A stretch of DNA of 64,000 nt from Candidatus Sulfomarinibacter sp. (GTDB taxonomy: Bacteria; Acidobacteriota; Thermoanaerobaculia; Thermoanaerobaculales; Sulfomarinibacteraceae), in the NCBI GenBank assembly GCA_041560205.1, contig JBFFBV010000002.1, positions 22,278 to 86,277 on the forward strand, in the 5' to 3' direction. Shown here piece after piece: positions 5,198-47,496 of this stretch (position 1 is its first letter; every line of letters begins with the position of its first letter). The translations under genes and the position numbers were made by a program. Below the pieces are notes generated by a model. It did not search any database, was not told where the DNA came from, and worked only from the letters and a program-made list of their open reading frames with translations.

Positions 5198-6403
5198 GTG
5201 AAGGTCGTACTTGCATACTCGGGTGGACTGGACACGTCAGTCATCCTGCACTGGATCAAACAGACCTATGACGCCGAGGTCATTTCCTACACCGGAAATG
5301 TCGGGCAGATGGACGAGGACCTTGACGAAGTCCGCGAGGCGGCACTCGCAACCGGCGCCTCCGAGGCCGTCGTCGAAGACCTCCGTGAAGCGCTGGTGAC
5401 CGAATGCGTGTACCCGGCTCTCAAGGCCAACGCCGTGTACGAGTGGTACTACCTCCTCGGAACCGCGCTCGCCCGTCCCGTTCTCGCACGAGGATTGGTG
5501 CAGACGGCGGAAGAATTCAACGCCGACGCCATCGCGCACGGTGCCACAGGTAAGGGCAACGACCAGGTTCGATTCGAGCTGTCGGCCTACGCGCTCCAAC
5601 CCGAGATCCGAGTCATCGCGCCGTGGCGCGAGTGGGAGATGAAGGGGAGATCGGATCTGGTCGCCTACGCCGAAGAACACGGTGTGCCGATCCCGGCGGC
5701 GCCAAAACCCGCCTACTCGATGGACGCCAACCTGCTCCACGTTTCCTATGAGGGCGGTGTGCTCGAGGATCCTTGGGCGAGCCCTCCCGATGGCATGTTC
5801 CGCATGACCACGGATCCCGAGGACGCCCCTGACGAGGCCGAAACCGTGAGTGTGCGATTCGAAAAGGGTGAGCCGACCGAGGTCAACGGCATCGGGCTCG
5901 ATCCCGTGACCTTGCTCGAGACGCTCAACACTATCGGCGGTCGCCATGGGGTAGGTCGCGTCGACATCGTCGAGAACCGTTTCCTCGGGATGAAGAGCCG
6001 CGGCGTGTACGAAACCCCGGGCGGCACCATCCTCCACCACGCCCACCGGGCAGTGGAGTCCATCACCCTCGATCGCGAGGTGCAGCACCTACGCGACGAG
6101 CTCGTGCCGAGATACGCGGAGATGGTCTACAACGGGCTCTGGTTCAGTCCCGAGCGCGAGGCGCTCCAGCGCTTCATGGACACGGTCCAGGAACGGGTCG
6201 ACGGCGAGGCGCGGCTCAGGCTTTACAAAGGCGGTGTCATGGTCGAGGGGCGAAGGTCGGAGACCCACACCCTCTACGACGAGGCCGTCGCGACCTTCGA
6301 GGCCGACGAGGTCTACGATCAGGCGGACGCCGCCGGCTTCATCCGTCTCAATGCCCTCCGACTGCGGACGCTCGGCGGCAAGAGGATCTCGGAGGGAGAA
6401 TGA
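5198..6403 (+). CDS. argG: Argininosuccinate synthase
   Basis: [23 protein letters not shown] and [12 protein letters not shown] motifs. Confidence 0.97.
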
Positions 6404-7785
6404 GCCTCCTCCGGCAGATCTTCGACGGCCCCGAAGACGATCTCTTCCGCGCCTTTGCATCGTCCATCGAGATCGACCGGTGGATCGCGGAGGAGGACAT
6501 CGAAGGCTCGATCGCCCACGTCACGATGCTCGGCGAGGTCGGTGTCCTGAGTGGGGACGAGGCAGCCATACTCGTGAACGGCCTCAAGCAGATCCTCGAC
6601 GAGCTCCAGCAGGGCAAATGGGAACCGGACGGCTCGCAAGAGGACATTCACATGGCCGTGGAGGCCCGCCTCACCGAACTGGTCGGGGAGATCGGCGCCA
6701 AGCTCCACACGGCGCGCTCACGGAACGATCAGGTGGCTACCGACGTCCGGCTGTGGTTGAAGCGGCGCCTCGAAACGCTTGCCATCAACCTGCGCGAGCT
6801 GATCGAGACACTCCTCGGTCGCGTGGAAAGAGACGGCCGGGTCCTCATCCCGGGCTACACCCATCTCCAGCGCGGGCAACCGATCTTTCTCGGTCACCAG
6901 CTCCTCGCTCACGCCTGGGCCCTGAGCCGCGATCTCGAGCGGGTCGGCCTCGCGACAACCAGGGTGGACCGCAGCCCCTTGGGCGCCTGCGCCCTGGCCG
7001 GTACTCCCCACCCCATCGACCGCCGGCGGACGTCCGATCTTCTCGGTTTTTCGGCTCCCGTCGAAAATGCGATGGACGCAGTGGCGTCGAGGGATCACCT
7101 TCAGGAGGCGGTATCTGTCTGCGCCATCTGCATGTCAAACGTCTCTCGGATGGCCGAAGAGCTCGTTCTCTGGTCGTCGTCAGAATTCGCCCTGGTCAGA
7201 CTCGATGAGCGCCACACCACCAGCTCGAGCATCATGCCGCAGAAACGGAATCCCGACGGCGCCGAGCTCATCCGCGGCGAAGCAGGTGTCGTTTTCGGGC
7301 ATCTTCAGGCGCTTTTGACCCTGACCAAGGCGATGCCCCTCGCCTACAACCGCGACCTTCAGGTCGAGCGGAGGCCGCTCGTCGAGTCGCTCCTGCGCAC
7401 GATTGCCTCCGTCCGGCTGCTCGCGGCAATGTGGCGAGAACTCCGGGTCATGCCGACACGTTTCGATGACGAACTCTTCGGCGACTTCAGCCTCGCCACC
7501 GATCTCGCTGACCTGCTCGTCACACGAGGGGTCCCCTTCCGGAAGGCGCACCACGCGGTCGCCTCGGCTGTCGCGTGGTGTGAGCGCGAAGGCGGGAAGC
7601 TCTCCCTCCTCGATGACGGTGCCGCAACGAAGTTCCATCCCGATTTCCCAAAAGACCTGAAACCGTGGCTCGATCCTCGAGCCGCCGTCGAACGTCGGAC
7701 CTCGACAGGCGGCACGGCGTCATCCGAAATCGGCCGACAAGTATCCCTGCTGCGCGACCTGATTTCGGATGGTCCAACCGCTTGA
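6400..7785 (+). CDS. argH: Argininosuccinate lyase
   Basis: [32 protein letters not shown] and PLAYNRDLQ motifs; overlaps the argG stop (ATGA). Confidence 0.96.
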
Positions 7786-7863
7786 GCAGAACCTCCAATG
7801 TCAAAACCGTGAAAAGAACCGAGCCAGGCAAAACTATCCACAGTCTCATTTCGTAGACACGCC

Positions 7864-10098
7864 ATGCCATGCTGGCGGGCCTGCCTCCTGCTTTTCACCG
7901 GCCTTCTCCCGATGATCGCGACCGCCCAGACACCCCCCACCCATGAACGGTCGGCCACGCCTCCATTCCAGATCCCGCGCATCGACGCACGGATTTCGGT
8001 CGATGGAGTCCTCGACGAGGACGTCTGGAAGGAGGCCTGGTCCATCACCCTCGACTACGAGGTTTGGCCCGGTGAGAACACTCCGGCCCCGGTCGAGACC
8101 GAGGTCCTGGTGTACCACGACAGCTCCCGCCTCTACATCGGCTTTCGCGCGCACGATCCGCAGCCGAAGGCGATCCGCGCCCACTTCACGGATCGCGACC
8201 AGGCGTGGGCGGACGACTGGGTCGGCGTCATGCTCGACACCTTCAACGACGAGCGTCGCAATTACGTGTTCATCGTCAATCCCTTGGGGGTGCAGTCCGA
8301 CAGCATCGAGCTGGAGGCCAACGGCCAGACGCCGTGGGACGGCATCTGGGCATCCGCCGCCGCCATCACCGACTGGGGGTGGTCGGCCGAGATGGAGATC
8401 CCCTTCTCCACTCTCAGGTTTCAGCGCAGCGAAGGCCCGCAGGTCTGGGGCTTCGACGCCAGTCGGATGTATCCGCGCAGCCTTTCCCACCAGATGGGGA
8501 CCTTTCCGCGCGACCGCAGCAACAACTGCTACCTCTGCCAGGCGAAGAAAATCGAGGGCTTTGCGGGCGTCTCTCCGGGACGCAACATCGAGTTCGTCCC
8601 GACCCTGGTCGCCTCACGCACCGACGAGCGCGAGGAGCTCCCCGACGGGCAGCTCGTCAACGGCGACCCCGATGTCGAGCTCGGCCTTACCGCCCGCTGG
8701 GGCGTCACGCCGAATCTCACCTTGAGCGGTACGATCAACCCGGACTTCTCGCAGGTCGAGGCGGACGCGCTCCAGCTCACAGTCAACCGGCCCTTCGCCA
8801 TCTTCTTCCCCGAGCTCCGTCCCTTCTTCATGGAAGGGGCCGATTTCTTCGAAACCCCGATGAACATCGTCTACACGCGACTGATGCGCGAGCCCGAGTG
8901 GGGCCTCAAGCTGACTGGCAAGGACGGCCAGCACACCATCGGCGCCTATGTGGTCGATGACGAGATCACGAACCTCATCATCCCCGGCAGCGAAAGCTCT
9001 GACTTCGCGGTCCTCGAGCAACCGAACACCGCCACCGTTTTGAGATACAAGTACGACATCGGCAACCGATTCACGCTCGGCGGGATCTTCACCAACCGCA
9101 GCGGTGACGAGTATCTGAATCGGGTCGCCGGGATCGACGGCGACCTCCGTTTTTCCGCAAGGGACCGAGTGCTCGTGCAGGCCCTGCGTTCGAGCACGCA
9201 CTACCCCGTCGAAATTGTCGAAGACTTCGAACAGCCCGAAGCCACCTTCGACGACTGGGCCGCGGAGATCGTCTACCTCCACAACACCCGTACCTGGGAG
9301 TGGTGGGCCGTGTGGTCCGACATCGGCAAGGGTTTCCGGGCCGACCTCGGCTTCATGCCGCAGGTGAATCGGATCCACCGGGAGGCGGGTCTCGGCTACC
9401 AGTGGAATGCGACCGATTCGAGCTGGTACTCGCGCATGGACATCAAGGCCAAGATCGCGGACACCGTCGACCAGACCGGTTTCCTCCTCTTCCACGAAGA
9501 CGTCGTCCAGTTCACTGTCGAGGGACCGATCCAGTCCCACTCGGTCATCCGTCCGAGCAGGGTTCGAGAGGGTTTCGACGGCCAGCAGTACGATTTCAAC
9601 CGCCTGAGGCTCCATTTCTGCGGCAGGCCCAACGGACACAGCCAGCTCTGGTTCAACCTTCACGGTGGTGGTCAGGTCGACTACGTCAACTCCCGCCCCG
9701 GAGATTTTCTCAACCTCAACGCGGGCCTCTGGTATCGCTTCGGACGACACCTCTCCCTCGAGCCGGGGTACACGCGCGAGACGATGGATGTCGACGAAGG
9801 GTGGCTCTACACGACATCCATCGCGCAGCTCGCCGCCTCGTGGCAGTTCAACCCACGATGCTTCGTTCGCGCGATCCTCCAGCACGTCGACAACGAATTC
9901 AACACCGACCTCTACGACGACGACCGCGATGCCGAGGAGCAGAGGCTCTTCACCCAGTTCCTCTTTTCCTACAAGCTCAACCCGCGAACGGTCTTCTTTC
10001 TCGGTTACTCGGACAACTCATTCGCCAATCAGGGTCATGGGCTCGTTCTCGGAGACCGCACGATCTTCGCCAAGATCGGCTACGCGTGGGTGTTGTGA
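7864..10098 (+). CDS. Exported protein, CBM9-like N-terminus plus DUF5916-type beta-barrel
   Basis: Signal peptide, ISVDGVLDEDVW, WSAEMEIPFSTLRF and TINPDFSQVEAD...FFPELRPFFMEG; ends in a barrel-like AKIGYAW. Confidence 0.75.
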   Translation: MPCWRACLLLFTGLLPMIATAQTPPTHERSATPPFQIPRIDARISVDGVLDEDVWKEAWSITLDYEVWPGENTPAPVETEVLVYHDSSRLYIGFRAHDPQPKAIRAHFTDRDQAWADDWVGVMLDTFNDERRNYVFIVNPLGVQSDSIELEANGQTPWDGIWASAAAITDWGWSAEMEIPFSTLRFQRSEGPQVWGFDASRMYPRSLSHQMGTFPRDRSNNCYLCQAKKIEGFAGVSPGRNIEFVPTLVASRTDEREELPDGQLVNGDPDVELGLTARWGVTPNLTLSGTINPDFSQVEADALQLTVNRPFAIFFPELRPFFMEGADFFETPMNIVYTRLMREPEWGLKLTGKDGQHTIGAYVVDDEITNLIIPGSESSDFAVLEQPNTATVLRYKYDIGNRFTLGGIFTNRSGDEYLNRVAGIDGDLRFSARDRVLVQALRSSTHYPVEIVEDFEQPEATFDDWAAEIVYLHNTRTWEWWAVWSDIGKGFRADLGFMPQVNRIHREAGLGYQWNATDSSWYSRMDIKAKIADTVDQTGFLLFHEDVVQFTVEGPIQSHSVIRPSRVREGFDGQQYDFNRLRLHFCGRPNGHSQLWFNLHGGGQVDYVNSRPGDFLNLNAGLWYRFGRHLSLEPGYTRETMDVDEGWLYTTSIAQLAASWQFNPRCFVRAILQHVDNEFNTDLYDDDRDAEEQRLFTQFLFSYKLNPRTVFFLGYSDNSFANQGHGLVLGDRTIFAKIGYAWVL

Positions 10099-37669: not shown

Positions 37670-37703
37670 GGCGGTGAGAGTAGCACGCCCGCCCCCCCAT
37701 CCA

Positions 37704-37855
37704 GATACACGATGCACCCAACCGCCCATTTACCCTGATACACGATACAGGGCCACCCTTCCACCCCCGCGGACTCCACGCCTCGATTTCTCGGGCGGGT
37801 GGGTGGCCTTGCATCGTGCATCTGGGCGGGAGCTGGGGCGGGTGCATCGTGTATC
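37704..37855. repeat. Palindromic element family B, copy 2
   Basis: Perfect terminal inverted repeat GATACACGATGCACCC / GGGTGCATCGTGTATC with inner GGCCACCC/GGGTGGCC; between divergent genes. Confidence 0.9.
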
Positions 37856-37900
37856 CCGTCGTCGCATGTGAGCCCACAGCCGCTGGGATACCATGAGCGC

Positions 37901-39333: not shown

Positions 39334-40581
39334 ATGAGCCGAACGATCCTGCTTGCCGACGACAGCCTCACGATTCAAAAGGTCGTAGAGCTCACCTTCG
39401 CCGACACCGACTACGACGTCGTGGCCGTGTCGAGCGGCGACGAGCTTCTCCAAAAGCTCCCGGAGACTCGACCAGAGCTTGTCATCTGCGATGTCATCAT
39501 GCCGGGGCGAGACGGCTACGACGTCTGCCAGGAGATCAAGTCGAGCCCGGACCACCTTCACCTGCCAGTCATTCTCCTGACCGGCACCTTCGAGCCCTTT
39601 GATCGCGATCGAGCGATCGCAGTGGGCTGCTCGGAGATCATCACCAAACCCTTCGAGGCCAAGAAGCTGGTCGACGCGGTCGAGCGGCTGGCCGCCTCCC
39701 CGTCCGGACCTCCGCCACAGGCTGTCGACACCCAGTCGATCGGTCCCGAGGATCTCGCGTCCTCCGCCGCCGACGAGGGGCTGGACGATACCGAGGTCAG
39801 CCAGGAGTTCGGGCCGGGCGCAGCGCTCACCGATGAGGGCTTCGAACTGGAAACCGACGAGGCCCAAATCGATGAGCCGAGCGAAGACCTGCCACCGGTC
39901 GAAGCTCTCCCCGATGAAGCTCAGGAAGAGCTCGAGTTCGGGGTTGTTGAAGGTGCGCTGGAGACGGATTCCGTCGAGCTGCCGGACGTCGAGGCGCCTC
40001 CGGCTGTCGAAGATTTCGCCGACCTCACGCCCGATCCGGCAAAGACCCTAGCCGCCGAGGACTTCCAGGCGATCATGCAGACCGAACAGGCCGACCAGAT
40101 CGGGGAAGTCGAGCATCTCAGCCTCGACGAGGAGCCCGAGCTCACCGAGGATCCGATGATCGAGTCGGAGACCGAGGAAGAGCCGTTCCCGTCCGCCAAC
40201 GAGACTGCTGAGGAGCCGTCACAGGACGCTGTCGAGGTCGACACCTCGTTGACCACGCCGATCGATGTCGATGCGGTGATGGCTGACGACCAACCTGAAA
40301 CGGAGACCGCTATGGACGATCACGTCGACCTGCCGGCCGACGAAGCATCGGACGACGCCGACACTCAGGATTTCGGCGACAAACCACCGGTCGAGGAAGT
40401 GCCGCCTCCCCCCGTCGAGGGCGTTGGCCTCAGCGACGCGGATGTCGACAGGATCGCGCGAAGGCTGCTGGAACTTGCCACCGACCGAATCGAAAACATC
40501 GCGTGGGACGTCATTCCGGACATGGCCGAGGTGGTCGTGCGCGAGCGAATGCGGGAGATCGAGGCCGAAGCCGAACGCTGA
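39334..40581 (+). CDS. RomR-like response regulator (receiver, acidic linker, RomR-C motif)
   Basis: LLADDSLTIQKVVELTF receiver, long D/E/P-rich linker and C-terminal IENIAWDVIPDMAE. Confidence 0.8.
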   Translation: MSRTILLADDSLTIQKVVELTFADTDYDVVAVSSGDELLQKLPETRPELVICDVIMPGRDGYDVCQEIKSSPDHLHLPVILLTGTFEPFDRDRAIAVGCSEIITKPFEAKKLVDAVERLAASPSGPPPQAVDTQSIGPEDLASSAADEGLDDTEVSQEFGPGAALTDEGFELETDEAQIDEPSEDLPPVEALPDEAQEELEFGVVEGALETDSVELPDVEAPPAVEDFADLTPDPAKTLAAEDFQAIMQTEQADQIGEVEHLSLDEEPELTEDPMIESETEEEPFPSANETAEEPSQDAVEVDTSLTTPIDVDAVMADDQPETETAMDDHVDLPADEASDDADTQDFGDKPPVEEVPPPPVEGVGLSDADVDRIARRLLELATDRIENIAWDVIPDMAEVVVRERMREIEAEAER

Positions 40582-41440: not shown

Positions 41441-41454
41441 CTCCCGCCCACCCG

Positions 41455-41602
41455 GATTCACGTTGCACCCGCCCCACCTCCCGCCGAGCTGCAAAATGCG
41501 GCGCTACCCGCCCTCCCGAGCAATCGAGGCGTTGAGTCCGAGAGGGTGGAATGGCGGCACTGTATCGTGTATCCGGGTGGGCGGGCGGATGGCAGCATCT
41601 TG
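41455..41602. repeat. Palindromic element family B, copy 3 (reverse complement of copy 2)
   Basis: Aligns end to end with the reverse complement of 37704-37855 (e.g. aatcgaggcgttgagtccg, ctgtatcgtgtatc). Confidence 0.85.
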
Positions 41603-41671
41603 CGCCTGGGTGGGCGGCTCGCATGCTCCGATATGATTTTCTAAGCAGTATTTTGCGCTCAGGAGCCTTCA

Positions 41672-42616
41672 TTGCCGAATTCCATCACCCTGCTCTCCCT
41701 CGTCATCGGCAGCTCGCTGGCCTCATCGCTCTTCTTCGTCCTGTCGGCTCGTATCCTGCGTGGGGCAGCTGAAGACAATCCACCTAGCACGCTGGGAGTC
41801 GTCGCCATCACCCATATCGGTGCGGCCCTTTTCCTCGCACCATTCCTGCCGCTCACCGGTGTCAGGTCGATGTCCGACATCAGGTCGATGGCGTCGACCT
41901 CGGTCGTCGTGCTCATCCTCGTGACGGCCGTTCTTCATCTCACGGCGAGGTTTTTTCACTTCAAAGCCCTCAGCCTGATCGATGTCACCCTGGTGAGCCC
42001 CTTCGCGGCGCTCACACCGGTCCTGACCCTTTCCACGGCGTGGGCGATCCTCGGGGAGACCCCGAACGCCCTCGAGCTCGTCGGCATCTTCATCATCGTC
42101 ACGTCGCTGCTCGGTCTGACTGGCGCCACGGACGCGTTCCGGACGCATTTCGCCGCAGGACAACGCACGCGCTCGAAAGCCGCGACCGCCGGCCTCTGGT
42201 TCGCCGTGTTGTCTGCCGTCCCGCCCGCGTTCAAGATCGCGGTCCAGAAGAAGGCGATCCTCCTCTCCAGCCCCTACACCTACGCCCTGATCATGCTACT
42301 CATGACGGGTGCCGGAGCGCTCGCTGTCTGTCTCGTCCGCAACTCGGCCAGCGATCTCCGCGCGCAGTTTCCCCCGCAGAGACTGCGTGCGCTCTTGCTC
42401 ATCTCCGGTCTGCTGGGTCTGAACACACTGCTGTTCTGCGCAGCTCTCACCCTGGGCCTGGCCGCCGGAGTCAGCGCGATGGCCCGCATCAGCATCATCT
42501 TCCAAGGGGTCATGGCGTACTGGATCGCCGGTCAGAAGACCGATTTCCGAAGGAGGATCCTGTGGGCGGTCGCCATCTTCGTGGGGACCCTGATCATCGG
42601 CACGTCCACCTCGTGA
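41672..42616 (+). CDS. DMT superfamily / EamA-like transporter
   Basis: About 10 hydrophobic segments in two repeats; KAL..IDVTLVSP...LTPV...AILGE motif. Confidence 0.82.
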   Translation: MPNSITLLSLVIGSSLASSLFFVLSARILRGAAEDNPPSTLGVVAITHIGAALFLAPFLPLTGVRSMSDIRSMASTSVVVLILVTAVLHLTARFFHFKALSLIDVTLVSPFAALTPVLTLSTAWAILGETPNALELVGIFIIVTSLLGLTGATDAFRTHFAAGQRTRSKAATAGLWFAVLSAVPPAFKIAVQKKAILLSSPYTYALIMLLMTGAGALAVCLVRNSASDLRAQFPPQRLRALLLISGLLGLNTLLFCAALTLGLAAGVSAMARISIIFQGVMAYWIAGQKTDFRRRILWAVAIFVGTLIIGTSTS

Positions 42617-42689
42617 TTGACATTCGGGACGGAAAGACTGAACGGCGGAGCAGCGGGAGGGTGCACAGAGACTTCATGAGAGGAGGGGA

Positions 42690-43616
42690 TCAGGGGCGGC
42701 TCCCTCGATAGACCTTCAGAAGCCCCTTCCTCTCCATTTCGTCGCGAAGTTGGCCGTCGAAGTCGGTCGAGTGGAAGCCGTCCGCATCGACTGATTCGTC
42801 CTCGTAATACCGGTCCCAACGACCCTTGGCGTCGGCACCGAAACCGAAGACGGCGACCTCGTCGCAGACATGGAGGGCGACCATCAACGCGATGAAGCCG
42901 GTCGAGGGTTACTGGCCTCGGCCCCCGGTCCAGTCTTCGCGGAGGTACTTGACGAACTCCGGATGGAGGAGCCGGACGCTGTCGGAAACCCAACCGAAAC
43001 CGCCCACGAGCGTCTCGATGCGGTCGAACACGTCGCTCACGTTCGACACAACCGGGTTCATCAGGAGAACTGCTCCGAGGTCGTACTGCGTTTCCTCGAG
43101 CTCACGCGGCCACATGACGTGGTGGGTTGTTCTTTCCCCGACATCGTCCTCGAATCCACCCGTTCGTGCACGATTCACCCGGAAAACGAGATCATGAGCA
43201 TCGATGAGGTCGCCGTATGGTGACTCGAGCAGGTTGCGGGAGGCGCCGACAACCGCGCAGAGCCGCTTCTCATCGTCATCCGGAAGGACTGGCGCCTCAC
43301 TCGTGAAGCGTTCGAAAGCCTTGGCGGCTGCCTGCGGCGTCAAATCGGCGCGATCGTCGGGTGCGACGAGGAGCTTCCACCACTCGAGCACCTCCTGCGA
43401 AACCCAGCCGTCGCTCGATTCCCAGAACAGGTCGACGCCGATTCTGAACGAGTCGGGGCAGGCCGACGCGAGCCGGCGCTGAAGGTGACCCCGGATCGAG
43501 GTCTTGAAATTTTGATCGTGAAACGGGGCCGCTGCGATGCCGACCTAGGCGACGACCCACGACGGCACGAGGAGGAACTGCAATAGGAAGACACGCCCAA
43601 TCGACGCTCTCAACAC
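42690..43616 (-). pseudogene. GT29 (eukaryote-type, ST3Gal-like) sialyltransferase with two in-frame stop codons
   Basis: One frame from GTG 43616 carries a hydrophobic N-terminus, sialylmotif L (CAVVGASRNL...IDAHDLVFRVN...DVGERTT), S (PSTG...HVCDEVAVFGF), III-like (RYYE) and VS-like (HSTDFD). Stops are TAG 43545-43547 and TAA 42909-42911. Confidence 0.85.
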
Positions 43617-43675
43617 GAATCTCCCGACCTCGGACCATGACAGATCCCGCGCGTCATCCGGTGCAGACAGCCCCG

Positions 43676-44674
43676 TCAACGAGCGTGCGAACGCGATTCC
43701 GCGAGCCCTTCGACCTCGAAGGAGACACACTGTGCGCACACCGTCTTTGCCACCTCGCGGCGGAGATGTGCGGCTCGCAGCGAGCGAAACCCGGGCGAAT
43801 GCCAGGCGTCCATGAACCGAGAATGTTTGAGATCTCCCATGTCGAATCGTCCGTCGTGGTCGAAGCAGCAGGCGCTGAGCCTCCCGTCCCATGTCACGTG
43901 GCCTTCGGTGAAGAGCGCCCAGCACGGGATCGGTGCCCGCATCATGTCGTACCTGCCGGGGTTGCCCCCGGTGAAGACCCAGCGCGTGCCGTCGTCCTGC
44001 TCGATGAGGGCGGCCTGTGAGTAAAGCGGCAGGGCGTAGACCTCGTCGGTGAAATCCTCGATCTCCTCGATGATTCGCGCCATCTTCTCGTGCTGGCGCT
44101 CGCCTTCGAACATGATGTAGGAGGCGTACAGACCGCAGGAGTAGCCGCCCTCCTCGCGAATCTGCCAGGCCCTCTTGAGGTTTTCGATGACCTCCCCGTA
44201 CACCGATTCGGGCCTGTTGGTGACTGATACGAAGTGCTCTGGATCGGAGTAGTTCAGGGAGAACTTCAGGCTGTCGAGACCGGCCTCCATGCAGGCCTCG
44301 ACCTTTTCGGGCGTGCAGAGCGAGCCGTTGGTCGTCAGGAAGACATAGGGGAAGCCGGTGTCCTTGGCAAACTTGACGGCGTCCGCGAGCCACGGAACGA
44401 GGAAGCTCTCACCCAGGTAGAAGAGCCCGAGCTCCTCGACCCCTTCGGCCAGCAGGTCGGTCACCAGCTCTTCAAAAAAACCGCGGTCCATCTGCCCCAC
44501 CAGACGCAGGCGCTTGGACCTCGCGCAGTATCTGCACGAGAAATTGCAGTGGCCGGTGAGCTCGATCTTGACGGACTTCGGGCACGGGGGCGCGTCAGAA
44601 ACATAGTCCCCGCGGATCTCGGTGATGTTGTCGATCCGTCTGGTGATGGACTCGCGCTGAATCTCCGAACCCAA
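43676..44674 (-). CDS. Radical SAM protein with SPASM/Twitch domain
   Basis: ELTGHCNFSCRYC (CxxxCxxC), GES and TTNG motifs; C-terminal C...DG...CCFD...C..C. Confidence 0.92.
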   Translation of the reverse strand: MGSEIQRESITRRIDNITEIRGDYVSDAPPCPKSVKIELTGHCNFSCRYCARSKRLRLVGQMDRGFFEELVTDLLAEGVEELGLFYLGESFLVPWLADAVKFAKDTGFPYVFLTTNGSLCTPEKVEACMEAGLDSLKFSLNYSDPEHFVSVTNRPESVYGEVIENLKRAWQIREEGGYSCGLYASYIMFEGERQHEKMARIIEEIEDFTDEVYALPLYSQAALIEQDDGTRWVFTGGNPGRYDMMRAPIPCWALFTEGHVTWDGRLSACCFDHDGRFDMGDLKHSRFMDAWHSPGFRSLRAAHLRREVAKTVCAQCVSFEVEGLAESRSHAR

Positions 44675-44785
44675 TCCGGTGCACCACCTTTCAACTCATA
44701 TTCTATCCCTGACGGGGTCTCCGCCCATAACGAAGCCGTTGAATCTACATAGCTTTGACAAATCGCCCACCCACCCACACACCCA

Positions 44786-44906
44786 GATACACGATGCAGG
44801 ATGCACGTCCCACCCTTCCCCACATCGCTGGCAAGGTCGATCCGGCAGGGCGGGCGGCCTTGGATCGTGCATCCGGGCGGATGCGAGGGCGGATGCATCC
44901 TGTATC
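44786..44906. repeat. Palindromic element family B, copy 4
   Basis: GATACACGATGCAGGATGCAC...GGCCTTGGATCGTGCATCCGGGCGG...GGATGCATCCTGTATC; same orientation as copy 2. Confidence 0.8.
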
Positions 44907-44941: not shown

Positions 44942-46738
44942 CTAGGGGACGGCCTGCAAACGCTCGAGGAACTTCGCGGGAGGCTCGAAGCCGGTGATGC
45001 GGAAGGCCTCTTCACCACCCGAGAAGACGATGACCGTCGGAACGCCTCTCACCTCGTACTCGGTGGCCAGGGCTTGATTCTCCTCGCTGCTTCGCGTCAG
45101 ATCGATCTTGAAACGCGAGTAGCCCTCGAGCACGGAACGCACCGCTGGGGCCGGAAAGGTCTTCTTGTCGAGCTCCCGGCAGGGCGCACACCAATCGGCG
45201 TAGAAATCGAGGATGACGGCCCCACCGGCCGAGATCGCACGCTCCACCCGTGACGCCTCGTACCGCTCCCACTGCAGGTGCGTGGCCACCTCGCCAACTT
45301 CGGCGGTACCGACCCGAACCGCCGGCGCCATGACGACCCCAGTGACGAGCGTCGCGGCGGCCAGCACCCGCATCACCCGATCGATGGTTGGCTGCTCGTG
45401 ACCGGTGCGATCGATCACCAGCAGGTAGAGCGCGCCAAAAACGAGAACCGCCGACATCAGCCAGCGGCCCGAATCCCCCGGCATGAGCGGCGCCGCGAAA
45501 TAGGCGGCCATGGCGATCAGGATCACGCCAAAGACCCGCCGCACGCCCACCATCCACATTCCGGAGGTGGGGAGCTTGTTGACCGCGCCGGTAAAGGTGC
45601 CGAGGATCAGGTAGGGCAGACCCAGCCCGAGAGCGAGCGTGAAGAACAGGAGGAATCCGAGGAGCGGGTCGCCGCGCTGCCCGACGTAGGTCAGGAGTCC
45701 GACCACGAAGGGACCGATGCACGGCGCCGCAACGAAACCCATGACCAGGCCCATGATGAGGGCGCCAAACACCCCGGTCCGTCCGCCGGAGGCACGTTGC
45801 GCCCAGCCCGGCACCCGCAGCTCCCACAGCCCGAACATCGATGTCGCGAGCGACAGCAGAACGACCACGATCACGCCGATTACCCATGGGTTCTGCAACG
45901 CGCTTCCGAAGATCGCACCGCTCAAGGCGGCGAGAACACCGAGCACCGAGTACGTCAACGCAATGCCGAAGACGTAGGCGAGCGCGAGCGGAAAGGCGCT
46001 GCCCTCACGATCTTTGGTCTGCTGCGTGAAGAAGCCCACCGTGATCGGTATGAGGGGAAAGACACATGGCGTGAGGTTGAGGGCGAGCCCGGCCAGGAAC
46101 ACACCGATCAGGAGCAGCGGAAACGACTTCGAACCGAAGTCTGCAGAACCCGAATCACCGGAACTGGATGCGCCGGCCATGATTTCCCTGAAAAGCGCCT
46201 GGTTCACGGCGTCAGAAGGGCTCCCTGGAGAAGCGACGGTGACGTCGACGCCGGTACGCACCTCTTCGGGCGGGAGACATTGGGTGTTGTTGCAGGCCTG
46301 GGCGGTGACCACGACCCGAAGGCGATGGTCACCGCCCGCCGAGTCCGGAACGACGAGCCCCGCCAGAATGACGGCCTCACCCTCCCACACCTCGATCGGG
46401 GTGTCGGCGAAGTCGAAGTCGAGGGCTTCCCCGTCGGGGAAGCTGACCACCGGCACGGGCCACCCCTCGGGCAGACGGAACTCGACAGTCGTCGGCAGCG
46501 AGAATTCGTCGCCCGGATCGTCGGAGTTGATGTGCCAACCCCGGTTGATCGCGATGCTGATCGCCAGATGAAGCTCCTCTCCTGCGACCAGCGGGTCACG
46601 GTCGGGCAGCAGCCGCACCTTGAAGACCGGCTCGGAGTCGAAGCCCTGCGCGAAGGCGTGGCCGGCCATGCCGAGCACCATCGCCGACACCAGAGTCAGG
46701 GTCGTGATCATTTGCTTGTTCAAGCTCGAGGCCGCCAT
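44942..46738 (-). CDS. dsbD: DsbD-like thiol:disulfide interchange protein (Ig-like domain, CcdA TM domain, thioredoxin)
   Basis: GWHIN, QACNNTQCLPP, LTPCVFPLIP, APCIGP and DFYADWCAPC motifs. Confidence 0.88.
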   Translation of the reverse strand: MAASSLNKQMITTLTLVSAMVLGMAGHAFAQGFDSEPVFKVRLLPDRDPLVAGEELHLAISIAINRGWHINSDDPGDEFSLPTTVEFRLPEGWPVPVVSFPDGEALDFDFADTPIEVWEGEAVILAGLVVPDSAGGDHRLRVVVTAQACNNTQCLPPEEVRTGVDVTVASPGSPSDAVNQALFREIMAGASSSGDSGSADFGSKSFPLLLIGVFLAGLALNLTPCVFPLIPITVGFFTQQTKDREGSAFPLALAYVFGIALTYSVLGVLAALSGAIFGSALQNPWVIGVIVVVLLSLATSMFGLWELRVPGWAQRASGGRTGVFGALIMGLVMGFVAAPCIGPFVVGLLTYVGQRGDPLLGFLLFFTLALGLGLPYLILGTFTGAVNKLPTSGMWMVGVRRVFGVILIAMAAYFAAPLMPGDSGRWLMSAVLVFGALYLLVIDRTGHEQPTIDRVMRVLAAATLVTGVVMAPAVRVGTAEVGEVATHLQWERYEASRVERAISAGGAVILDFYADWCAPCRELDKKTFPAPAVRSVLEGYSRFKIDLTRSSEENQALATEYEVRGVPTVIVFSGGEEAFRITGFEPPAKFLERLQAVP

Positions 46739-47496
46739 CAATCGCCCCCCCTCTTCGGAGCCAGCTCCGGGCTGAATCGATGCACGAGCTCCCGGATCTC
46801 CTCTGAAAAGTACTCCCAGTACCTCTTTACGAGGTCCGGGCGCCTGGTTACCGTGCACTCGACGGACCGTTCCAGTCGCCACCGCCGGATCGCCTCGTGG
46901 TTGCCAGAGGTCAAGACCTCGGGCACGGAGACCCCTTCCACCTCCGGCGGGCGCGTGTAGCAGGGGTGGTCGAGGAGCCCGCGCTCGAAGCTGTCCGAGC
47001 TCACCGATTCAGGATCACCGACCACGCCGGGCACCAGACGCGACACGGCCTCGATGAGCGCCATTGCCGCGACCTCGCCCCCTCCCAGGATGTAATCGCC
47101 GATGGACACCTCCTCGGCCCCGCTGGCCTCGAAGATGCGCTCGTCGAAACCCTCGTAGCGGCCGCACACCAACACGACGCGCTTTTCGCGGGCCAGCTCC
47201 CCGGCGAGCTCCTGGTCCAAAAGCCGACCCCTCGGGCCGAGGATGATGCTTCGCACCTCGTCTGATTCGCCGCCCAAATCGCGAATCGCAGCCAGCACCG
47301 GAGGTGCCTGCAGCACCATCCCGGCACCGCCGCCGTAGGGTTCGTCATCGACCTGTCGCCACTTGTTGTCGGCCCAATCGCGAAGATCGTGGGCCTCGAG
47401 TTCGATCACGCCACGCTCGACCGCCTTGCCGAGCACCCCGGCGGTACGGAACGGCTCGAAAAGCTGCGGAAATATCGTCAGTATGTCGAAATGCAT
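46738..47496 (-). CDS. trmD: tRNA (guanine37-N1)-methyltransferase
   Basis: VDDEPYGGGAGM, CGRYEGFDER, SIGDYILGGGE and YTRP motifs. Confidence 0.97.
   Translation of the reverse strand: MHFDILTIFPQLFEPFRTAGVLGKAVERGVIELEAHDLRDWADNKWRQVDDEPYGGGAGMVLQAPPVLAAIRDLGGESDEVRSIILGPRGRLLDQELAGELAREKRVVLVCGRYEGFDERIFEASGAEEVSIGDYILGGGEVAAMALIEAVSRLVPGVVGDPESVSSDSFERGLLDHPCYTRPPEVEGVSVPEVLTSGNHEAIRRWRLERSVECTVTRRPDLVKRYWEYFSEEIRELVHRFSPELAPKRGGD

Follow-up and report, generated by a model that had tools for sequence, protein, structure and literature searches.

In the genome of a Candidatus Sulfomarinibacter sp. (G000; 184 contigs, 93% complete), three accessory genes lie between birA and dsbD on contig JBFFBV010000002.1: one for a radical S-adenosylmethionine (rSAM) enzyme, one for a glycosyltransferase of family GT29 that resembles the animal sialyltransferase ST3Gal-I, and one for an EamA permease of the drug/metabolite transporter (DMT) superfamily. 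They occupy 3.2 kb of a 64,000-nt stretch of this contig, hereafter called the window, which is the whole DNA segment that was analyzed. On balance, we think it somewhat more likely than not that the birA-dsbD insert represents a copy of an accessory cassette for envelope glycans that can relocate, and we give about the same credence to the view that the cassette is a lineage-specific unit of envelope-glycan decoration built around an animal-type GT29. A preliminary description of the same DNA had located the three genes and read them as a periplasmic sialylation module with Golgi-like logic. Coordinates and Pfam matches confirm its gene placement (Table 1), the short spacing of about 60 nt that it gave for the co-oriented rSAM and GT29 genes (59 nt between the rSAM stop at 43676 and the GT29 start at 43616), and the convergence of EamA and GT29, across a gap of 73 nt. 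It missed two in-frame stop codons in GT29, and the repeats that it saw around the genes proved weak. Support for its interpretation is partial: the evidence bears out a cassette and an exported topology, and it does not bear out sialic acid.

Gene order, chromosomal sites and distribution of the cassette

The arrangement of the three genes is constant. In all 10 loci where a contig spans the unit (the window; the same-genus relatives G003 and G015; and the fetched contig stretches L013, L019, L020, L022, L023, L025, and L027), the rSAM gene is followed by one or two GT29 copies and then by a convergent EamA gene. The metagenome scan that contributed to this set returned 20 loci, one of which duplicates G003; a further stretch, L026 (2,777 nt), has four or more GT29 copies in tandem. 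The unit occupies three chromosomal sites. Site A, between dsbD and birA, accounts for eight loci, and it is at the birA/dsbD site that G003 carries the unit, with two GT29 genes; site B, between lolA and an IF-2B-like gene, is represented by L023, L025, and contig C39 of G000; site C, beside leuS, is used in G015, where the birA/dsbD site is empty. Comparison with relatives for an unoccupied site had been suggested in the preliminary description, and such a site was found in all five same-genus genomes examined, in which birA and dsbD are directly adjacent, 109 to 377 nt apart. Since lolA/IF-2B and leuS are alternative locations of the cassette, its adjacency to dsbD is incidental.

We searched 41 relatives and then 401 genomes of the class, sampling 133 genera. 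GT29 was found in three of them (G000, G003, and G015) and orthologs of rSAM and of EamA in those three and no others, and a scan of genome contigs with the GT29 alignment found nothing beyond the two relatives. Searches with tblastn using rSAM and GT29 gave no match among PLSDB plasmids or INPHARED phages, and the rSAM, EamA, and GT29 of the window were all without a match in PHROGs. Among the genomes searched, the cassette is confined to one marine-sediment genus of Thermoanaerobaculia. Because the three genomes are kin, we count them as one pattern rather than as three independent events. These results support the view that the three genes form a conserved, co-inherited unit found at three chromosomal sites. 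Literature searches on bacterial GT29, on rSAM with sialyltransferase and EamA, and on Thermoanaerobaculia sialyltransferases did not find a description of the cassette.

The components of the unit have diverged to different degrees: GT29 copies are 50 to 60% identical to one another, compared with ~78% for rSAM and ~70% for EamA. The variable number of GT29 genes together with their low identity is a pattern typical of diversifying surface-glycan genes. In the G015 locus (L008, positions 5486 to 9276), the rSAM frame shifts near residue 70 and the adjoining leuS is split into three open reading frames; these breaks are more likely assembly indel errors than real pseudogenes.

Affinity, topology and integrity of the GT29 genes

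The profile of the cassette GT29 clade aligns with pig ST3Gal-I over the whole catalytic domain (E = 8e-57, 196 bits), compared with 86, 65, and 64 bits for ST6GalNAc2, ST8Sia3, and ST6Gal1, respectively. In a phmmer search of 1.84 billion representative proteins, the clade itself was reduced to a single full-length representative and some fragments. The protein ranked next, at 164 bits and 38% identity, shares 90% identity with a carnivore ST3GAL1 and exceeds 80% identity with numerous mammalian entries of that name, and the representatives that follow (P0247 onward) are 40 to 50% identical to mammalian ST3GAL1. In metagenomes, the clade comprises more than 120 distinct protein clusters at 90% identity. 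Its presence in 1 of 133 genera, set against the breadth of animal ST3Gal, suggests that the gene was captured from a eukaryote, as judged from distribution rather than from a labeled tree.

The likeness to ST3Gal-I extends to the motifs and to the N terminus. In an alignment of six sequences that includes the window copy, the invariant columns comprise C183-A-V-V-G, P301-S-T-G, C315, Y334-Y-E, and H346...E357, which we take to be sialylmotifs L (C-x-V-V-G-x-S), S (P-S-T-G...C), III (x-Y-Y-E), and VS (H...E), respectively; the cysteines of motifs L and S are both among them, and these columns line up with the corresponding motifs of pig ST3Gal-I. Topology was assessed with a hydropathy script that looks for a 15-mer with a mean Kyte-Doolittle value of at least 2.0. 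All 27 assessable copies have such a hydrophobic N-terminal segment preceded by Arg or Lys (10 of the 37 copies were not assessable), and in several copies the segment ends in AxA-Q, as in cleavable signals. The transferase domain, which keeps both of these motif cysteines, is thus predicted to be extracytoplasmic, in agreement with the periplasmic placement proposed in the preliminary description. An RR pair stands no more than 8 residues before the hydrophobic segment in 16 of the 27 assessable copies (in L007, L008, L009, L013, L015, L018 to L021, L023, L029, and L032), and twin-arginine translocation (Tat) rather than Sec might be the export route of these copies.

Bacterial members of GT29 with sialylmotifs have been reported before. 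In the main text of Petit et al. 2018 (PMC5811610), on which our comparison rests, they are mostly alphaproteobacterial and are described as lacking both a transmembrane domain and the motif L and motif S cysteines that form the disulfide. The cassette clade has both an anchor and the cysteines and comes from Acidobacteriota (Thermoanaerobaculia), which that main text does not list; overlap with the supplementary accessions of the study is possible. As far as that text describes them, the known bacterial GT29s differ from the cassette enzymes in exactly the marks of a lumenal enzyme.

These marks bear on a second reading, in which the pathway would stay on the cytoplasmic face: GT29 would be only membrane tethered and would act inside on a lipid-linked or lipid A-core acceptor, and EamA would export or flip the product or carry an unrelated metabolite. 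Some anchor-type copies do have Arg after the hydrophobic segment as well as before it, as this reading would allow, and the known bacterial sialyltransferases are cytoplasmic according to PMC8092323, in the part of that paper drawn on here. On the other side stand the basic residues that precede the segment in every assessable N terminus, the AxA-Q ends that look like cleavable Sec signals, and the invariant cysteine pair, which is the pair that forms the lumenal disulfide in the animal enzymes; the cytoplasmic-type bacterial GT29s in the main text of PMC5811610 are without both anchor and cysteines. Taking these together with the permease data given below, we regard a cytoplasmic-face pathway as unlikely.

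The GT29 copy in the window is broken. Its frame contains two in-frame stops, TAG at 43545 to 43547, directly after the signal-peptide-like N terminus, where homologs have Gln, and TAA at 42909 to 42911, immediately before the PSTG of motif S, where homologs have Tyr or Phe. The frame begins with a GTG codon at 43616, preceded by a Shine-Dalgarno-like GGGAG, and when the stops are read as X it can be aligned over its whole length with five intact homologs. PF00777 matches the pieces at 93.5 and 54.9 bits (cutoff, 23); in a whole-genome scan with this family the gene scored 151.4 bits with one TAA inside, compared with 164 to 170 bits for intact homologs. The TAA is present in contigs from all four public metagenome runs compared, which belong to four studies, and the TAG in both of the two runs that cover its position, although those two may be the source sample. 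Because the same stops recur in contigs of these runs, they are not an assembly slip; from the codons involved, they look like two single-base nonsense changes. The ratio of nonsynonymous to synonymous divergence (dN/dS) between the pseudogene and its nearest homologs is 0.17 to 0.24, with dS near saturation. Since this falls within the range of intact GT29 pairs (0.15 to 0.36), the breaks look recent. At positions where five other GT29s agree, the pseudogene carries 13 substitutions in 107, and the intact copy on C39 also 13 in 107, so that this count does not separate them.

That intact second copy stands alone between lolA and the IF-2B-like gene, near tgt-yajC-secDF. In total, G000 has one rSAM gene, one EamA gene, and two GT29 genes, one of them broken, and with both sites taken together each of the three genes is still present in exactly one intact copy, which lends modest support to a joint function. 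The same genome also invites the reading that the cassette is a decaying remnant, in which a eukaryote-derived GT29 is being lost and rSAM and EamA remain for reasons of their own or will be lost in turn, with no function in common. The two nonsense codons, seen in independent samples, are what such decay would leave, as are the entire loss of rSAM and EamA from site B of G000, the gutted rSAM genes of L029 and L032, and the presence of the cassette in only 3 of 401 genomes. Several findings argue the other way: the rSAM and EamA genes of the window encode complete proteins in which every family-invariant residue is present, the dN/dS range above indicates purifying selection on intact GT29 pairs, one intact copy of each gene has been kept, and the clade comprises the many metagenomic protein clusters noted above. 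We consider decay without joint function improbable, and the proposed decoration unit remains the reading that we prefer.

Radical SAM enzyme, donor sugar and permease

The rSAM protein matches PF04055 (53 bits) and PF13186 (47 bits), with no NCBIfam equivalog at cutoff. Its CxxxCxxC motif (C43, C47, and C50) is invariant over 12 homologs. The C terminus has five invariant cysteines (C251, C269, C270, C313, and C316), compared with the seven of a full SPASM motif, and a single Twitch-like auxiliary cluster would fit this set; the spacing of these cysteines presumably resembles that of the auxiliary-cluster ligands of BtrN. The best sequence matches in the PDB are BtrN (E = 4.7e-7) and then DesII. 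A structural model built from the 12 homologs (mean predicted local distance difference test score [pLDDT], 76.7; predicted TM score, 0.81; low confidence at residues 236 to 254) gave DesII (E = 5.5e-11), BtrN, GDGT-MAS, viperin, MoaA, and BlsE as its best fold matches. The likeness to BtrN, DesII, BlsE, and viperin thus comprises sequence or fold matches, the CxxxCxxC motif, and a C-terminal cysteine cluster, at only 14 to 18% identity.

SPASM-domain rSAM enzymes are often peptide maturases, and the fold matches to the maturases SuiB, SkfB, and anSME are only slightly weaker than those to the enzymes named above, which speaks against a sugar substrate. One may picture a glycosylated system of the kind that makes ribosomally synthesized and posttranslationally modified peptides, in which rSAM would cross-link a small precursor peptide, GT29 would glycosylate it, and EamA would export it; PqqE also appears among the NCBIfam and fold matches. 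The enzyme, for its part, has no N-terminal peptide-recognition domain, its CxxxCxxC motif beginning at residue 43, and its five C-terminal cysteines are Twitch-like. Nor is there a conserved precursor open reading frame in the aligned stretch before the rSAM start at eight loci, which contains only promoter-like boxes, and the relatives of rSAM elsewhere adjoin sugar-nucleotide enzymes and glycosyltransferases. A peptide-based system of this type is, in our judgment, highly improbable.

The family to which the enzyme belongs is large, with 4,631 proteins at E values of 1e-5 or lower; homologs at ~60% identity are labeled Rhodobacteraceae, Rhodospirillales, or Alphaproteobacteria. In IMG/VR, 105 viral contigs encode relatives that are 44 to 58% identical, and we examined the neighborhoods at 80 of these 105 loci (L033 to L112). 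A GT-A-like protein with a DxD motif adjoins the rSAM relative in 38 of the 80, usually just downstream, and its profile matches a solved GT8 enzyme (E = 3e-4). Methyltransferases, a DegT aminotransferase, and a GDP-mannose 4,6-dehydratase recur nearby, often beside capsid or terminase genes. Because the relatives adjoin varied glycosyltransferases and sugar-nucleotide enzymes, a sugar substrate is favored for the cassette enzyme as well. A relationship between the phage GT8-like neighbor and GT29 was considered and rejected, as profile comparison shows none (probability, 0.1). The viral pair of rSAM and GT8-like genes could be a phage-borne glycan or virion-glycosylation module, apparently undescribed. 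None of the 80 loci holds GT29 or EamA, and the link of rSAM to these two genes is hence specific to the lineage. The co-occurrence across genomes that the preliminary description had proposed to look for holds for the same three genomes of the class and does not extend to the rSAM-relative loci outside the genus, a result that weakens the functional tie between the three genes.

As for the donor, searches for NeuB (PF03102) came up empty in G000, at 93% completeness, and in G003; G015 has one PF03102 gene, ~190 kb from the cassette. G000 has a sole CTP_transf_3 (PF02348) gene, identified as KdsB by an NCBIfam model (292 bits), and G003 likewise has a single PF02348 gene, KdsB; an additional, partial match occurs in G015. 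In G000 and G003, PF02348 thus gives KdsB only, and no NeuA or other CMP-nonulosonate synthetase was found. Sialylation as such, the reaction proposed in the preliminary description, is not borne out: a genome without CMP-nonulosonate synthesis was named there as speaking against it, and in the strict form, with NeuB not found and KdsB as the only CMP-sugar synthetase found, this is the situation in G000 and G003. As KdsB is the only such enzyme found, the donor is more likely to be the cytidine monophosphate (CMP)-activated form of 3-deoxy-D-manno-octulosonic acid (Kdo), or a derivative of it, than sialic acid, and N-acetylneuraminic acid seems an unlikely native donor on these gene inventories.

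There are precedents for sialyltransferase-like enzymes that use Kdo. According to PMC8092323, CMP-Kdo can serve as donor for Lst and LsgB, two bacterial sialyltransferases, which thus use an endogenous donor when no CMP-sialic acid is made; they belong to another CAZy family (GT52) and fold, are cytoplasmic, and, in the account given there, come without a partner permease or rSAM enzyme. Plant GT29-like proteins have been proposed to transfer Kdo or 3-deoxy-D-lyxo-heptulosaric acid (Dha) onto rhamnogalacturonan-II, as summarized in PMC5811610. They too are GT29 members in organisms without sialic acid that make CMP-Kdo, as set out in its main text; they differ from the cassette clade in working in a eukaryotic Golgi apparatus and in that some are without motifs III and VS, whereas the clade keeps all motifs.

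The EamA permease aligns over its full length with eight orthologs (66 to 74% identity) and gives a single tblastn match in G000, where it is the only copy of its type. PF00892 matches it in two stretches, as in DMT-superfamily members with two EamA repeats. The preliminary description had drawn on the membership of nucleotide-sugar transporters (NSTs) in this superfamily; a recognizable NST it is not. None of the NST families Nuc_sug_transp, TPT, and UAA matches it above cutoff, and TPT falls below cutoff (E = 0.0028 and 0.02) in two of three orthologs and not in the protein of the window. Its nearest Atlas clusters are generic bacterial EamA proteins, it has no PDB sequence match at E values up to 10, and a model from a nine-sequence alignment has a mean pLDDT of 42. 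What points to a role as donor transporter is its fixed place beside exported transferases of a CMP-sugar type, from which we infer that role. The generic character of the permease, without an NST signature, counts against it and suits the cytoplasmic-face pathway discussed above, as does the lability of CMP-Kdo, a short-lived compound according to PMC8092323; the same source, in the part drawn on here, describes nucleotide-sugar transporters as unreported in bacteria. The lability of the donor and the unreported status of such transporters therefore either count against use of the donor in the periplasm or make it notable.

Locus layout and the proposed pathway

The features of the locus are collected in Table 1. 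The preliminary description had the three genes bracketed by two opposed repeats. This stands only insofar as the two intergenic stretches share a single inverted pair, of 50 nt and 72% complementary (41543 to 41592 versus 44767 to 44816); at other loci, the borders of the cassette showed no such repeats. G-rich repeat stretches occur in the window at 37689 to 37856, 41443 to 41620, and 44767 to 44900. The 19-nt core, GGGTGGGCGGG, has four matches in the window at three or fewer mismatches, compared with 0.04 expected, and the birA-EamA stretch has a 125-nt copy, 83% identical, at ~37732 to 37856, which places it ~3.6 kb upstream of the unit. Across the whole genome, 3 and 9 additional short matches were found for the two intergenic stretches, respectively. 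The G-rich intergenic elements are copies of a low-copy dispersed repeat, and the idea that flanking repeats mobilize or define the cassette was dropped, since they are not at the borders of site B or C.

Table 1. Features at and around the birA-dsbD insert (window coordinates)
Feature	Coordinates	Strand	Remarks
birA	ends 41440	+	Left flank
birA-EamA intergenic stretch with low-copy dispersed G-rich repeat	41441..41671	.	Inverted repeat inside, 41443-41467 / 41561-41585
EamA/DMT permease, 314 aa, intact	41672..42616	+	PF00892, E = 4e-16
GT29 (ST3Gal-like) pseudogene	42690..43616	-	PF00777; natural stop TGA at 42690-42692
Radical SAM enzyme, 332 aa, intact	43676..44674	-	PF04055, PF13186
Conserved region upstream of rSAM, putative promoter/operator	44700..44762	-	Alignment of 8 loci
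G-rich dispersed repeat copy, cassette-dsbD interval	44767..44900	.	Inverted match to 41543-41592
dsbD	44942-46882	-	Right flank; trmD after dsbD

Upstream of rSAM, sequence is conserved across sites A, B, and C in an alignment of eight loci (the window, L008, L009, L013, L019, L022, L023, and L025). A TAGAAT box (44700 to 44705) lies 25 nt before the rSAM start, with five of its six positions invariant in all eight loci, and a 24-nt box similar to TTTGTCAAAGCTATGTAGATTCAA (~44739 to 44762) is common to the site A and site C loci. Between 41300 and 45100, a scan for sigma-70 consensus promoters and a search of Rfam both returned nothing. The boxes probably serve as a promoter or operator that belongs to the cassette and moves with it on relocation. 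Farther out, upstream of birA, positions 39334 to 40581 on the plus strand encode a 415-aa protein; its ortholog in G003 has an N-terminal receiver domain followed by a long, highly acidic Pro/Glu-rich stretch.

In the pathway that we propose, a cytoplasmic Twitch/SPASM-type rSAM enzyme, one to four exported GT29s, and the convergent EamA permease would act as one envelope-glycan cassette. The rSAM enzyme would modify a sugar or sugar nucleotide, the DMT permease would bring the donor, or else an intermediate, through the inner membrane to the GT29 outside, and the GT29s would use an acidic keto-sugar activated by CMP, with CMP-Kdo or a derivative as the likely donor, to cap an envelope glycan. 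Variation in GT29 copy number and the loss of single copies may then reflect diversification of the surface glycan. In addition to the difficulties already raised for the rSAM substrate, the donor, and the permease, several points weigh against this proposal. The GT29 of the window cannot yield a full-length protein, and the predicted topology comes from a hydropathy script rather than from a trained predictor or an experiment. All cassette loci belong to one genus-level lineage, with intact rSAM proteins 77 to 81% identical, and the conserved order is therefore partly a matter of shared ancestry. In L029 and L032, rSAM has large internal deletions beside an intact GT29, and in L029 EamA is reduced to its tail; given that rSAM is lost or gutted at these loci, GT29 may work without it.

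A bolder form of the proposal, which we put forward as tentative and rather doubtful, is that the cassette is the first bacterial counterpart of Golgi glycosylation, with a periplasmic, Leloir-type GT29, a CMP-keto-sugar delivered by a DMT permease acting as a nucleotide-sugar transporter, and an rSAM enzyme that tailors and perhaps stabilizes the donor; the transferase gene would have come from a eukaryote and later acquired bacterial partners, so that the lumenal logic arose again by convergence. Its model would be the animal pair of ST3Gal-I and the transporter SLC35A1, itself of the DMT superfamily, and the shared features are the catalytic domain with its sialylmotifs, the N-terminal anchor or signal, the cysteine pair of motifs L and S, and a DMT-superfamily permease gene beside the transferase gene. 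The cassette differs from animal Golgi sialylation in its bacterial host, in that NeuB and NeuA were not found in G000 or G003, in having an rSAM enzyme within the unit, and in the ~38% identity of its GT29 to ST3GAL1; and its permease, unlike SLC35A1, is a generic bacterial EamA protein rather than a member of the SLC35/NST group.

To our knowledge, periplasmic glycosyltransferases are thought to depend on lipid-linked donors. An exported, disulfide-type, ST3Gal-like GT29 fixed beside a DMT permease provides a concrete and cheap test for an exception to this rule. A bacterial GT29 clade whose nearest outside relative among 1.84 billion library proteins is animal ST3Gal1 also bears on the debated origin of eukaryotic sialyltransferases and on gene transfer between domains of life, and it could be a source of soluble ST3Gal-like enzymes, made in bacteria, for glycoengineering. 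Finally, the cassette ties a widespread and unstudied rSAM family, with thousands of homologs and more than 100 on IMG/VR contigs, to glycan chemistry.

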